A DNA stretch of 64,000 nucleotides, taken from Fibrobacteria bacterium (lineage in GTDB: Bacteria; Fibrobacterota; Fibrobacteria; UBA11236). The notes beneath the pieces were generated by a model. It was not told where the DNA came from and searched no databases. It worked only from the letters and a program-made list of their open reading frames with translations. Made by a program: the position numbers and the translations under genes. The stretch is from positions 17,713 to 81,712 of the forward strand of contig JBGTHM010000014.1 of the NCBI GenBank assembly GCA_041746255.1. The letters are read 5' to 3'. Positions 12,268 to 17,722 of this stretch are shown in pieces. Position 1 is the stretch's first letter. Each line of letters opens with the position of its first letter.

Positions 12268-13842
12268 TCAAGCATAGACTTTGAAATCGATTTCCTGGAA
12301 AATCGTATCGGTGTTTTCCAGGTTGGATAAAAAGGCCGCATGGACGGAGTCGGCTTTTATCTGGCGATAGAGTTCGAGGGTGTTGTGGATGTGGACGCGG
12401 GTTCGCTTCACGGCGTATTCCACCGTGGTTCCGGTTTTCATGATGAACCCCCAGTCGGACGCCTGGGCCAAAAGCAGTTCGCGGGCCATTTGTTTGCGCG
12501 CCCTATCGAATAAATCACCCGTCGATGGAAGTTTCGCGGCTTCATGCATGCATTCGGCGGCGTGATGCAGATGAGGATAGATCCATTCATTGGACCCGTT
12601 GAGCCAGACCTCCGAATAACCGCCCGCTCCCCACGACGAAAGGCCCGGATTCGATTTGGGAATGCCGCCATGCCTCTCCAGGTAATCGCGTGGCGTCGAC
12701 AGTTGGATTTCATCCTGTTCGGTCATGACTTTACGCATAACCGTACCTAACCACTGCGGCCCTTCGAACCACCAATGCCCGAAAAGTTCGGCATCGTAGG
12801 GGCTGATGATGTTGGGCGGGGTATCCAGGTGCGGCGCGAGATGCCTGACCTGTAATTGGCGGTTGAAAAGGAAGTTGGCGGCATGATCGCGCACCGCGTC
12901 TTTGGCCCATTGTTCCACATAGGGCTCTTTATACTGGCCGCTGCCGGTGATCCGGTGGTATTTGATGCCCGTATTGGTACGGATTCCCATGGGATGAATG
13001 TACGGTCGGATATAATCCATGTCCAAATCATGTCCGATATCCCGATAAAATTCCCGATACCGGTAATCACCGGGATATCCTTCTTCGGCTGACCATACCG
13101 CTTTGGAAGACTCGTGATCGCGCGCGAAGCAGAATGTGCCCGCTTCGGTTTCGATGGGTGCGTGCACGCCCTTGGGCGAAGGCGGCAGGGCTTGCAGGAT
13201 GCCGTGCGTGTCCACGAAAAAATAGCGAAGCCCGGCGTCTTTGATTTTCCGATCCAGGCCACGGTAGTATCCGCACTCGGCCAGCCAGATGCCCCAGGGG
13301 TCTTGGCCGAAATGCTTGATATAATTGGTTACCGCAATTCCCAATTGCGCGTCCACCGCCTTGGGCGTCTGGCGGAGATTCGGCAGAAATCCGTGCGTCG
13401 CGCAGCAGGTGATGATTTCCAGATTCGCCGACTTCTGGAATTTACGGAATCCGTTCAGAAGGTTGCGGTCGTATTTCATGAAGGTGCGGTGGCAGTCTTC
13501 GAACATATTACGGTACATGGCCGCAAGATAGCAGAAGGGAGGGAAATTCTTGGTGCGCGAGCATTCCTTCTCGGCCAGTTCACGCAGTCTATTGAGGTGA
13601 TTGAGGTAACGGTTTTGTAAAAGCTCGTCCGCCAGCATTTCGCAAAGCGGAGGGGTGATGCTCATGGTTATTTTGAAGGGCAGGCCCTCCCGCTCCATGG
13701 CTTCGAACTGTTGCAACAGCGGTATGTAGGTTTCCGTTATCGCTTCGTAAAGCCACTCCTCTTCGAGGAAGCGGGGGTGTTCCGGGTGCCGGACAAAGGG
13801 AAGATGCGCGTGAAGGACGAAGTTAAGATACCCCGTCAGCAA
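12268..13842 (-). CDS. glycoside hydrolase family 57 protein (1,4-alpha-glucan branching-enzyme type)
   Basis: MLTGYLNFVLHAHLPFVRHPE...EWLYEAITETYIPLL is the GH57 N-terminal catalytic signature. 524 aa, consistent with GH57 branching enzymes. Confidence 0.8.
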   Translation of the reverse strand: MLTGYLNFVLHAHLPFVRHPEHPRFLEEEWLYEAITETYIPLLQQFEAMEREGLPFKITMSITPPLCEMLADELLQNRYLNHLNRLRELAEKECSRTKNFPPFCYLAAMYRNMFEDCHRTFMKYDRNLLNGFRKFQKSANLEIITCCATHGFLPNLRQTPKAVDAQLGIAVTNYIKHFGQDPWGIWLAECGYYRGLDRKIKDAGLRYFFVDTHGILQALPPSPKGVHAPIETEAGTFCFARDHESSKAVWSAEEGYPGDYRYREFYRDIGHDLDMDYIRPYIHPMGIRTNTGIKYHRITGSGQYKEPYVEQWAKDAVRDHAANFLFNRQLQVRHLAPHLDTPPNIISPYDAELFGHWWFEGPQWLGTVMRKVMTEQDEIQLSTPRDYLERHGGIPKSNPGLSSWGAGGYSEVWLNGSNEWIYPHLHHAAECMHEAAKLPSTGDLFDRARKQMARELLLAQASDWGFIMKTGTTVEYAVKRTRVHIHNTLELYRQIKADSVHAAFLSNLENTDTIFQEIDFKVYA

Positions 13843-15083
13843 ACCGTCAATTCCTTGAGATTGTATAAGAACGATTCGGTCATCCCGCTTCGGGAAGTAA
13901 GCGTCATATTGATATTGTTCTTCTCCACGGGAAGCAGGATGCGGAAATAACCGTCTGCGTCGGTGACGACGTTCCGGTCGTCGACTTTAACGGCGGTTCC
14001 CGGCCTGACCTTGCCTTTGATTTCCAGTTCGGCGGGAATGGGTCCCCGTCTGCCGCTCCAGTCTGTTTCCGGAGCCTTCGTCATGCGGGAGCTGGAGCTG
14101 AAGATGTCCGAGCTGGGATTGAAGAAATCCATGAAGGCGCCGTTGCCTTCGAGGATGAAATGTTCTGAACTGCCGAAGTGCATGGTGCGGGAACCGCCAC
14201 GCAGCAGAATGTTTTCGTTTTCGAGACGACGCTGGGTTTTTCTCCAGGTTTCGGGCAGTTCGGAGGCTTCCGAGGCGATAATGGAAATGAAATGCCCGTT
14301 GTCGCTAAGCCAACCCAATTCGATTTGGTAGGTCTGTCCGCTATCGGGAACCTTGAACCACCATTTGCGCTCCATGAAATGCACGGGAATGAAGGTGAAG
14401 TTCGTCTCGAAAAGATCACGCGAGTCCCAATTGATTTTCAGAACTTCGCGATAGGTTTCGGTGGCGTCGCGTTTTTCTTGGGATTTCCGCTCCACCAGGT
14501 CCGAGGTAAGCTCCCAATAACTGAACATCCATTCCGGGTCCTTGGGCATCAATACCAATTTGTCCTGATAATATTCACGAGGCAAATCCGGAGTATGGTC
14601 GGGAAAACCGAAGGGCCGGTGGGTTTCGAATTGCAGAAAAGTTTTGGCCCGCAAGGTTTTATCGGGACTGGAGCCCGGCTCGATGATCGCCAGGGTCAGC
14701 TCTTCCAAGGGGCTGGCTTCTTTTGGGCGGGAGTCTGCTACACGGTTGGTTTTGCGATTGGTCTTGGGGCTTCCGTTCGTAGCGGAGGTCTTTTCCGCTC
14801 TGGATGCTTCAGTCGATGTGGAGGTTTTTACAAGGGTTTCCGGTTTGGCGGCCTTTCCGAATCCAATCTTGGCGGCAACCCTTTTTACCGCAGCCTTAAT
14901 CCGCGATTTGCCTTCCGGTTTGGAAGTGGCTGCCTTCTCTGCGGCTTTCCCTGCTTTTTCCTTAGGGAGGCCGGCTTGCTTGGCAGCGGACTTGGTTGTG
15001 TCCGAAGGTTTTTGAGTTTTCCGCGTTGCGGATTTTTTATCAGGCTTCTTATTCATGTTCCGCTCCTGGCTTGATGAAATCAT
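13836..15083 (-). CDS. hypothetical protein with a Lys/Ala-rich N-terminal tail (possibly DUF4912-like), translationally coupled to the GH57 gene
   Basis: 415 aa. The first roughly 100 aa are K/A/T/S-rich and low complexity (histone H1-like). The conserved C-terminal region has W/F/Y-rich motifs. Overlaps GH57 by 7 nt. The DUF4912 assignment is from memory of GH57 neighbourhoods and was not verified. Confidence 0.5.
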   Translation of the reverse strand: MISSSQERNMNKKPDKKSATRKTQKPSDTTKSAAKQAGLPKEKAGKAAEKAATSKPEGKSRIKAAVKRVAAKIGFGKAAKPETLVKTSTSTEASRAEKTSATNGSPKTNRKTNRVADSRPKEASPLEELTLAIIEPGSSPDKTLRAKTFLQFETHRPFGFPDHTPDLPREYYQDKLVLMPKDPEWMFSYWELTSDLVERKSQEKRDATETYREVLKINWDSRDLFETNFTFIPVHFMERKWWFKVPDSGQTYQIELGWLSDNGHFISIIASEASELPETWRKTQRRLENENILLRGGSRTMHFGSSEHFILEGNGAFMDFFNPSSDIFSSSSRMTKAPETDWSGRRGPIPAELEIKGKVRPGTAVKVDDRNVVTDADGYFRILLPVEKNNINMTLTSRSGMTESFLYNLKELTVC

Positions 15084-15116
15084 TCGAAGCCGATGACGGA
15101 ACGCCCTATGGGGTTC

Positions 15117-16289: not shown

Positions 16290-16303
16290 AGGGTTTTTCC
16301 GGT

Positions 16304-17722
16304 TTACCTGTCGCGAAGGGGGTGGATATGGATGAGAAGGTTGATTCGAGGCATGTCCACAGCGCCGGGTTTGGGCAGACTGCCGAAAACCGGGTAGGGG
16401 AGGCTGAGATGAGCGGAGTCGCTCGTTCCCTCCATTTTAAGGCGGAGCATGTGTTGCGATTCGGGATTCGCCTGATTCAACCAGCTTTGCGCGGCATGTG
16501 TTATGGGAAGCACAAGCCGGTTTTTGCGAGAGGAAATCAAATTACCGGGAACCGCTTCGGCGCCGGCTGACGTTATCACGAACGCCTCATCCCGAAAGGA
16601 GGCATCGGTCCCTTTTTTTGCGGATGAGAAGTCCAGGCTGATGCGGGCGGAATAATCACCTTCCATGCGGATCAGCGAATCCGCAAAAGTCCACTCGGCT
16701 TCGGCATAGGGGATGAAATACTGCAAATTGAGGCTATTGGATGGCTTTGGGGAGAATTGCGCAGGCAGGGCGGCGGAGATTCGGGCCAGCAAGGTATCCC
16801 GGTTTACGAAGTGCACGATATGCTGCCTAGGCCATCGGTGCATGGCATTATCCTCCACGCTGGAAACCCGGAATCCCACCGCTCGCAGTCCGGAACCCGA
16901 AGCTAAAGGACGTACTTGCCATTTTTCCGGAGCGGAGGAAACCCGGGTTGCGTTTCCCAACAAAAGATGGGGCTCGCTGTTGCGTCCGGCGAAAATGGCG
17001 GTGAGTCTGGCTAAATAATTGGGAGGGGTCTCGTCTCCCTCAAAGGCTATGGCCTCCAAATGAATATGGATTTGCATGGCCGTGGTTTCCCCGCGCAAGG
17101 CATCACGCAACCGGGGAAGGGGCAAAACCTGCATACTATCGGCATCGTAGGAGCTGGAAGACTTGAGAACAAGAGTATCTTCGGTTACAGAGACATCGTT
17201 CAAGTCTTCCCAGGCATGGATGAACTTCCGCCATTCCGCCGAATTGTCCTTCAGTTTGCCGGATTCCTCTTTCTCGATCGGCTTGCGATAAACCACGGCG
17301 CGCAGCCTCACGGCTTCGGTGCGGTTCTTGGCGGAATCCAAATAGGCTATGCCCCTGTCGTATTTACGGTAAGTGAGTGAGAGCTTGACCCCATTTTCCG
17401 GCAGGTCGCTAAACCGCCCGGGCTCTTCTAATCGGAAAGACAAGCGGGCTTGGGCGGCTTCACTTTCCCAGGCGCCGACCACGAAATCACTCCGGTTCAC
17501 CTCGGTCACCGGGGCGGGGGTGTCTATCACCAGGGAGTCCAAGGGGAAGTCATTCAGCTGCACCGGGTAAAGCGGTTCGCCTAAAACGATACCCTGGGAG
17601 GCGAGCAAATCCTGGCCGGTATGGTTGGGGCCGTCGGAAATGCAGGCTGAAAATTGCAAGGCGCCTAGGACGGCGCAGGAAGTGGATACGAGTAAACGCA
17701 GGAAAGGAACCGCTTTATTCAC
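16304..17722 (-). CDS. hypothetical lipoprotein
   Basis: Lipobox-like ...[12 protein letters not shown]. The start was moved to the GTG at 17722, because the track start at 17848 would overlap the thrC 5' region. No known domain recognised. Confidence 0.45.

Follow-up and report, generated by a model that had tools for sequence, protein, structure and literature searches.

A conserved Fibrobacterota gene cluster joining predicted BamH- and BamG-like envelope genes to a DUF4912 protein and an AmyC-type GH57 enzyme

Here we describe a cluster of four genes in a 64,000-nucleotide stretch of DNA, referred to throughout as the window, from the Fibrobacteria bacterium of GTDB lineage Fibrobacterota; Fibrobacteria; UBA11236 (assembly GCA_041746255.1, contig JBGTHM010000014.1, positions 17,713-81,712). 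The cluster occupies positions 12268-17722 of the window, and both the open reading frame (ORF) listing and direct reading of the junctions confirmed the original prediction of four tightly packed genes on the minus strand. Taken in transcription order, they encode a lipoprotein (gene 1), an outer-membrane beta-barrel (gene 2), a protein of family DUF4912 (gene 3) and a glycoside hydrolase of family 57 (GH57; gene 4), and they appear to combine two gene pairs with different tasks. The genes and the spacer ahead of them are as follows.

16304-17722, minus strand: gene for a predicted bamH-like surface lipoprotein; 472 aa, GTG start, lipobox FSAC
15117-16289, minus strand: gene for a bamG-like FadL-family outer-membrane barrel, predicted to have 14 strands; 390 aa
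13836-15056, minus strand: gene for the DUF4912 protein; 406 aa, with an N-terminus that is basic, disordered and rich in K and A, then the DUF4912 domain and, at the C-terminus, a region resembling a beta-sandwich
12268-13842, minus strand: gene for a putative GH57 glycogen-branching enzyme of AmyC type; 524 aa, TTG start
17723-17804: divergent intergenic region of 82 nt between bamH (minus) and thrC (plus, ATG at 17805); presumed promoter region of the cluster

The junctions between these genes are short throughout. The GTG start at 17722, which gives the lipoprotein its 472 residues, is internal to a longer ORF (16304-17848), and 14 nt separate the lipoprotein stop (16304) from the barrel ATG (16289). 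Between the barrel stop (15117) and gene 3 there are 33 nt if translation begins at an ATG at 15083 (ORF 13836-15083, 415 aa) and 60 nt if it begins at the ATG at 15056, which has an AGGAG ribosome-binding site upstream and is the start chosen by the public gene call. Gene 3 and the GH57 gene overlap by 7 nt (TTG at 13842; TGA ending at 13836). The public annotation of the same 82-kb contig likewise gives proteins of 472, 390, 406 and 524 aa. Upstream of the cluster, thrC was identified by its match to the PALP family and by 75-86% identity in syntenic loci; the promoter of the cluster presumably lies in the spacer that it shares with bamH, where no sigma-70-type consensus was found. At the other end, a response-regulator/GGDEF gene runs convergently with the GH57 gene and ends 9 nt from its stop. 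Terminator-like sites were found at none of the gene junctions of the cluster: the sole minus-strand match is within the coding sequence of GH57, and fewer sites were counted in total than expected from shuffling. There were no Rfam elements within the cluster, and its base composition is unremarkable.

The envelope half of the cluster is best introduced through the outer-membrane-protein assembly machine (BAM) of the Fibrobacterota-Chlorobiota-Bacteroidota (FCB) superphylum, of which BamG and BamH are subunits (PMC12611786, PMC12578637). BamG is a FadL-like 14-strand barrel; in solved Bacteroidota complexes it is packed onto the back face of BamA, and it serves as the anchor for BamH, a surface lipoprotein. 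Essential in Bacteroidota, BamG is reported to be conserved in six further FCB phyla (PMC12611786, PMC12578637). The product of gene 2 carries a signal peptide followed by a predicted 14-strand barrel, and it matches the NCBIfam BamG model (NF053685) over profile positions 23-392 of 397 with an E-value of 1.5e-26 and a score of 93.5 bits, against an equivalog cut-off of 250 bits. Every one of 28 barrel relatives matches the same model, the best at E 9.8e-38. Relatives of the barrel come from Fibrobacterota metagenome-assembled genomes. A phmmer search of PDB sequences returned a full-length match to 9n2d_B, entered as 'Bam G' of the Flavobacterium johnsoniae BAM complex (E 1.2e-8). With the AlphaFold2 model of gene 2 (predicted local distance difference test score, pLDDT, 77.6; about 14 strands) as query, the top three Foldseek hits were three solved BamG chains from three species with template modelling (TM) scores of 0.71-0.74, compared to 0.56-0.62 for FadL and TodX and 0.45 for PorV, such that the modelled fold is closer to BamG than to the transport FadLs or to PorV. 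Behind the signal peptide, a motif of the form SP(L/F)..R-x-AMG is conserved in all three lineages of the cluster (A-C), and in alignment it falls on the N-terminal part of F. johnsoniae BamG. By its sequence and its predicted fold, we take the gene 2 product to be a BamG homologue.

Gene 1 adjoins the barrel gene on its upstream side in lineages A, B and C. Its product begins with a lipoprotein signal ending in GALQFSAC, the cysteine of which is invariant in all aligned relatives, and continues into a tail, C-ISDG(P/A)N-x-TG, that is almost invariant among them; across 33 sequences C27, D30, G31, N33, G36 and L40 are conserved at 90% or more. The family is small: word-indexed homologue searches gave only 2-3 proteins, and an exhaustive HMMER search, from which the alignment for folding was drawn, found 38 representatives among 1.84 billion proteins. 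No Pfam, NCBIfam or informative PDB sequence match was obtained for gene 1 (by phmmer and two profile searches against PDB), none of the 33 family members matched any Pfam family, DUF4270 included, at E-values up to 1, and profile searches of PDB from the family reached no BamH chain. Because membership of DUF4270 was tested in this way and not found, we term the protein BamH-like, and because sequence leads neither to DUF4270 nor to the BamH chains, the assignment rests on predicted structure and gene context. The AlphaFold2 model from the 33-sequence alignment (pLDDT 85.6; predicted template modelling score 0.81) has the fold of BamH, which is carbohydrate-binding-module-like; a Foldseek search with the model was uninformative. 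The modelled fold, the lipidation, the conserved tail and the place beside bamG all fit BamH, which suggests that the gene 1 product is a structural homologue of BamH outside DUF4270.

Two further features of gene 1 were seen. Its product (472 aa) and that of its closest relative (479 aa) are without an insert of roughly 120-150 residues that nearly all other members, at 580-640 aa, possess. A likeness of 49 residues (134-182; 17177-17323, minus strand) to human cyclin-dependent kinase 2-interacting protein (CINP) also appeared in the PDB search at E 6e-5; we set this match aside as probably due to chance, since conservation of the segment stops at the 55%-identical relative and does not extend to the wider family.

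The second half of the cluster has clearer sequence relatives. Gene 4 matches Pfam Glyco_hydro_57 (PF03065, E 3.7e-35) and BE_C (PF09210, E 6.9e-32), both above their cut-offs, and phmmer aligned it over its full length with Thermotoga maritima AmyC (2b5d, E 4e-162). In AmyC, H10 is the polarizer, W29 the gatekeeper, E185 the nucleophile and D349 the acid/base, and the enzyme has high hydrolytic activity (PMC6616209); these residues align with H11, W30, E189 and D350 of gene 4, in which the catalytic Glu nucleophile, Asp acid/base and His polarizer are thus intact. The NCBIfam equivalog models for glycogen-branching enzymes scored 317 bits against a cut-off of 1000, a low value that we attribute to their having been built for Thermococcales and Thermus. 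No signal peptide and no hydrophobic segment was found in the product, and the nearest GH57 loci among reference genomes carry the label Fibrobacteria. Judged by homology, gene 4 belongs with the GH57 glycogen-branching enzymes of AmyC type and would act as a branching enzyme; its domains, AmyC match and catalytic residues agree with the original prediction of a GH57 alpha-glucan enzyme.

Gene 3 matches Pfam DUF4912 (PF16258) with an E-value of 1.5e-18 and 67.6 bits, well over the gathering cut-off of 29.4, so that the family named beforehand as a candidate proved correct. Its first 150 residues are basic and rich in K, A, S and T (isoelectric point 10.4, net charge +20), a composition common to its relatives, and neither a signal peptide nor a hydrophobic segment was found. 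Against PDB, the DUF4912 profile gave only a weak match, to domain B of glucodextranase (E 0.26); among 49 DUF4912 relatives, 20 also match Glucodextran_B and 7 match Rho_N, and the alignment contains invariant Trp and Tyr positions. Our literature search found no functional study of DUF4912, the papers that mention it being on unrelated topics. Because of the conserved pairing with GH57 described below, the invariant Trp and Tyr and the glucodextranase-B-like C-terminus, we propose as the probable role of the DUF4912 protein that it binds or tethers either the glucan or the enzyme without being catalytic itself. If this is true, the GH57 branching enzymes would have in DUF4912 an accessory factor that is widely distributed and has so far gone unrecognised.

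To place the cluster among its relatives, a scan with a GH57 alignment over one genome per species yielded 80 loci from many phyla (none from Gemmatimonadota, Ignavibacteriota or Calditrichota), whose ORFs were searched by hmmsearch; on checking with Pfam, 49 of 49 calls matched DUF4912. This revealed DUF4912 directly upstream of the AmyC-type GH57 gene, on the same strand and often overlapping it, in 52 of the 80 loci and in at least 14 phyla. The arrangement occurred in all seven loci from Bacillota, which have a single membrane and no outer membrane, and in none of 12 from cyanobacteria. A BamG-like barrel, by comparison, lay upstream of GH57 in all six Fibrobacterota loci and in none of the 74 from other phyla, and a broader barrel profile left the latter count at 0/74. 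Since DUF4912-GH57 occurs without a bamG-like neighbour in other phyla, the pair functions without an outer-membrane partner there. Among side results of the same scan, Omnitrophota had DUF4912 upstream of GH57 in 12 of 12 loci; the cyanobacterial AmyC-type loci without detectable upstream DUF4912 were L051, L068, L070, L072-L077 and L082-L084; and a Chitinispirillia-like contig (L093, 9247-12643, minus strand) holds a second DUF4912-GH57 pair, convergent with its bamG-linked pair.

Within Fibrobacterota, the order lipoprotein, barrel, DUF4912 and GH57 recurs in every locus that carries this GH57, and on that ground the four-gene arrangement is not a product of chance. The loci differ in what they contribute to this argument. 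In L001-L003 and L008-L010 the flanks of the window (thrC, ytfJ, PBP1 and GGDEF genes) are also present, and because these flanking genes are held in common with the window they add little independent evidence. In L087 (Fibrobacterota), L021 (Chitinispirillia) and L047, none of the window's flanks is present, the four-gene order is kept with tiny gaps, and the barrels are only 22-27% identical to that of the window. A metagenome scan from the barrel side, using the alignment of lineage C (the L021/L047 barrel), produced ten loci, and all eight with downstream sequence have DUF4912 next and then GH57 wherever the contig continues. Among the 80 GH57 loci and the metagenome loci, the four-gene joint is old and specific to Fibrobacterota, which we regard as a modest new observation. 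The expectation of a conserved operon-like unit was thereby upheld, as was that of envelope genes conserved next to GH57 in related genomes, lineages with different flanks included.

Fibromonadaceae-type and termite-gut contigs contain a second group of BamG-like barrels (L005:8001-9158, L006:1143-2288, L088:887-2071 and L090:428-1624) that lie beside secA, RNase II (RNB) or ybeY and have no BamH-like neighbour. A deletion has removed 11 residues of the conserved N-terminal tail motif in these barrels, which may be either orthologues or paralogues of the cluster-type barrel. A link between barrel and glgC in Fibromonadaceae was considered and rejected: of two loci, the neighbouring NTP_transferase gives a GlgC-type match in only one, and a weak one at that, and in related loci secA, RNase II or ybeY takes the place of this neighbour.

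Considering the two halves together, we judge it likely that the cluster is a composite operon, in which a bamH-bamG pair for outer-membrane-protein assembly and a cytoplasmic DUF4912-GH57 pair for glycogen branching are coupled by transcription. Genes 1 and 2 would encode accessory subunits of an FCB-type beta-barrel assembly machinery and would associate with BAM here as their homologues do. Genes 3 and 4 would act as a cytoplasmic pair on storage alpha-glucan, with the GH57 enzyme cleaving alpha-1,4 chains, joining the pieces back on as alpha-1,6 branches and hydrolysing to some extent. The two modules, placed in different compartments, would most likely meet only at the level of transcription, in what may be a growth-linked housekeeping operon fixed early in Fibrobacterota, and would have no direct functional link. 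Several points weigh against this composite operon. The BamG score of gene 2 lies under its equivalog cut-off; searches by sequence connect gene 1 neither with DUF4270 nor with a BamH chain, and its BamH assignment is based on a predicted structure and gene context. The order is kept in three Fibrobacterota lineages with unrelated flanks and in 8/8 assessable metagenome loci, and a composite operon does not fully account for the persistence of the joint across such deep lineages.

Gene order this stable is usually more than accident, and we therefore leave a small probability, well short of even, to a functional link. Such a link might take the form of control over outer-membrane biogenesis, exerted by the state of the glycogen store or by the polycationic DUF4912 protein, or BamG and BamH might be specialised for building a glucan-related envelope structure; we hold either version to be improbable. 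The original prediction had taken the cluster for an uncharacterised glucan-handling or surface-polymer module and had given genes 1 to 3 no assignable function, and neither statement was supported. The NCBIfam, PDB and Foldseek evidence points to a BamG homologue for gene 2 and the predicted structure to a BamH fold for gene 1, so that two of its unknowns match a characterised and unrelated system, BAM. A dedicated module for glucan export or a surface polymer is unlikely because the glucan proteins are without export signals, the DUF4912-GH57 pair is autonomous in 14 or more other phyla, and the role defined for the envelope pair is a different one. A narrower version, to which we give the same low credence as to the functional link, is that a pair of paralogues derived from BamG and BamH was recruited to an alpha-glucan task (maltodextrin, a surface glucan or a glucan-specific outer-membrane machine) and forms one module with DUF4912 and GH57. 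The four-gene unit kept across deep Fibrobacterota lineages despite differing flanks would fit such recruitment, as would the carbohydrate-binding-module-like fold of BamH, and the second barrel type, in its secA/RNase II context and with no BamH neighbour, could in principle be the housekeeping copy. However, neither GH57 nor DUF4912 has an export signal and their pair occurs without envelope partners in those other phyla; FadL-family barrels carry hydrophobic molecules rather than sugars, and F. succinogenes is listed with only one BamG and one BamH (PMC12611786). The BamG N-terminal tail motif, moreover, is kept in the cluster-type barrels and partly deleted in the secA-context group, and we found no genome with both kinds of barrel.

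The remaining alternatives we consider less probable still. The barrel could be an ordinary FadL/TodX-type channel for hydrophobic compounds, with the lipoprotein as its surface partner in substrate capture and no tie to BAM. It does belong to the FadL superfamily, with FadL and TodX matched at a Foldseek probability of 1.0, one source labels a relative a 'long-chain fatty acid transport protein', and the association of the Fibrobacterota proteins with BAM is suggested by comparison with Bacteroidota; given the closer fit to BamG in sequence and fold, we think this doubtful. Least probable, and in our view very unlikely, is an incidental local synteny without selective meaning, with the genes read as two or more transcripts. 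The 33-60 nt separating gene 3 from gene 2 leave room for a promoter, in the closest relatives synteny extends over the entire neighbourhood (thrC, ytfJ, PBP1 and the GGDEF regulator), and the single transcript is itself a reading of the sequence. Yet the gene order is intact in L021, L047, L087 and L093-L100, all of which lack the window's flanks, the gaps are tiny or overlapping in all lineages, and the junctions are free of terminator-like sites. The composite operon is the reading that we prefer.

On this reading, two envelope proteins of an uncultured Fibrobacterota lineage that would otherwise be 'hypothetical' can be assigned to the recently described FCB-type BAM complex, and BamH relatives outside Bacteroidota can evidently be too divergent for sequence models, being recognisable only through fold and gene context. 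Part of this was already known: two papers from 2025, in which a Fibrobacter pair is listed, underlie the BamG and BamH assignments, and the GH57 enzyme is a close AmyC relative. New here are the recognition, at the level of predicted fold, of a very divergent BamH family; the counts that show a conserved pairing of DUF4912 with AmyC-type GH57 branching enzymes in many phyla, the two genes often overlapping; and, as a modest addition, the Fibrobacterota-specific fusion of both gene pairs, in which bamH-bamG is kept joined to DUF4912-GH57. The DUF4912 pairing and the Fibrobacterota joint would change current understanding only if a functional link were shown.

Around the cluster, the plus strand at 8308-12258 encodes two secreted proteins (410 and 419 aa; overlapping ORFs; no family match) followed by the response-regulator/GGDEF diguanylate cyclase, all convergent with the cluster; the three genes keep their synteny within the clade of the window (L001-L003, L009 and L010) and are absent from deeper lineages. 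A tRNA-Arg (ACG) gene lies at 19595-19669 on the minus strand, between a ytfJ-like gene and a 334-aa gene of no named function, and a partial tRNA at 63958-64000 on the plus strand is cut by the end of the window.

Compared to known systems, the nearest counterparts of the GH57 half share its essentials: AmyC and gene 4 have the same domain pair (GH57 and BE_C) and the same catalytic residues, and both are without a signal peptide, whereas the window's organism, unlike T. maritima as the source of AmyC, is not identified as a thermophile. In DUF4912-GH57 pairs of other phyla, the DUF4912 protein often begins with Rho_N (7 of 49) where gene 3 has a K/A-rich tail, and among the 80 loci only Fibrobacterota place bamH-bamG ahead of the pair. 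The BamG proteins of F. johnsoniae (Fjoh_1412, 9n2d_B), Bacteroides thetaiotaomicron (Bt4367, 9hiv_F) and Porphyromonas gingivalis (9hjm_F) are, like the predicted gene 2 product, 14-strand FadL-type barrels; they have an extended, conserved N-terminal tail, to which the tail motif of gene 2 may correspond. BamG is the best match of gene 2 in both sequence and fold, although identity to the Bacteroidota proteins is only about 16-18% and the host belongs to another phylum. BamH (DUF4270; Fjoh_0823, 9n2d_C; Bt4306, 9hj3_G; P. gingivalis, 9hjm_G) is more distant still, at 8-11% identity to gene 1 and with no detectable sequence similarity. In the six positions after its cysteine, gene 1 (C-ISDGPN) has one acidic residue where the Bacteroidota surface-export signal has at least two; two are present in L009 (CLDDGPN) and L087 (CVLTDET), and the rule, being one for Bacteroidota, may not hold for Fibrobacterota.

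The adjacency of the two envelope genes has direct parallels. Gene 2 adjoins a BamH-type lipoprotein gene as bamG does in non-Bacteroidota FCB phyla, and consecutive BamG/BamH locus tags are given for F. succinogenes (FSU_1156/1157), Ignavibacterium, Salinibacter, Gemmatimonas and Caldithrix (PMC12611786, Supplementary Table 1); our literature search with the F. succinogenes locus tags FSU_1154-1157 found no paper. In B. thetaiotaomicron, Bt1785/Bt1786 (BamG2/BamH2) form a putative operon (PMC12578637) and are an adjacent pair like that of the window, but they are non-essential paralogues that went undetected in published proteomics. FSU_1156/FSU_1157 of F. succinogenes are likewise an adjacent bamG-bamH pair, and belong to the same phylum as the window's organism.

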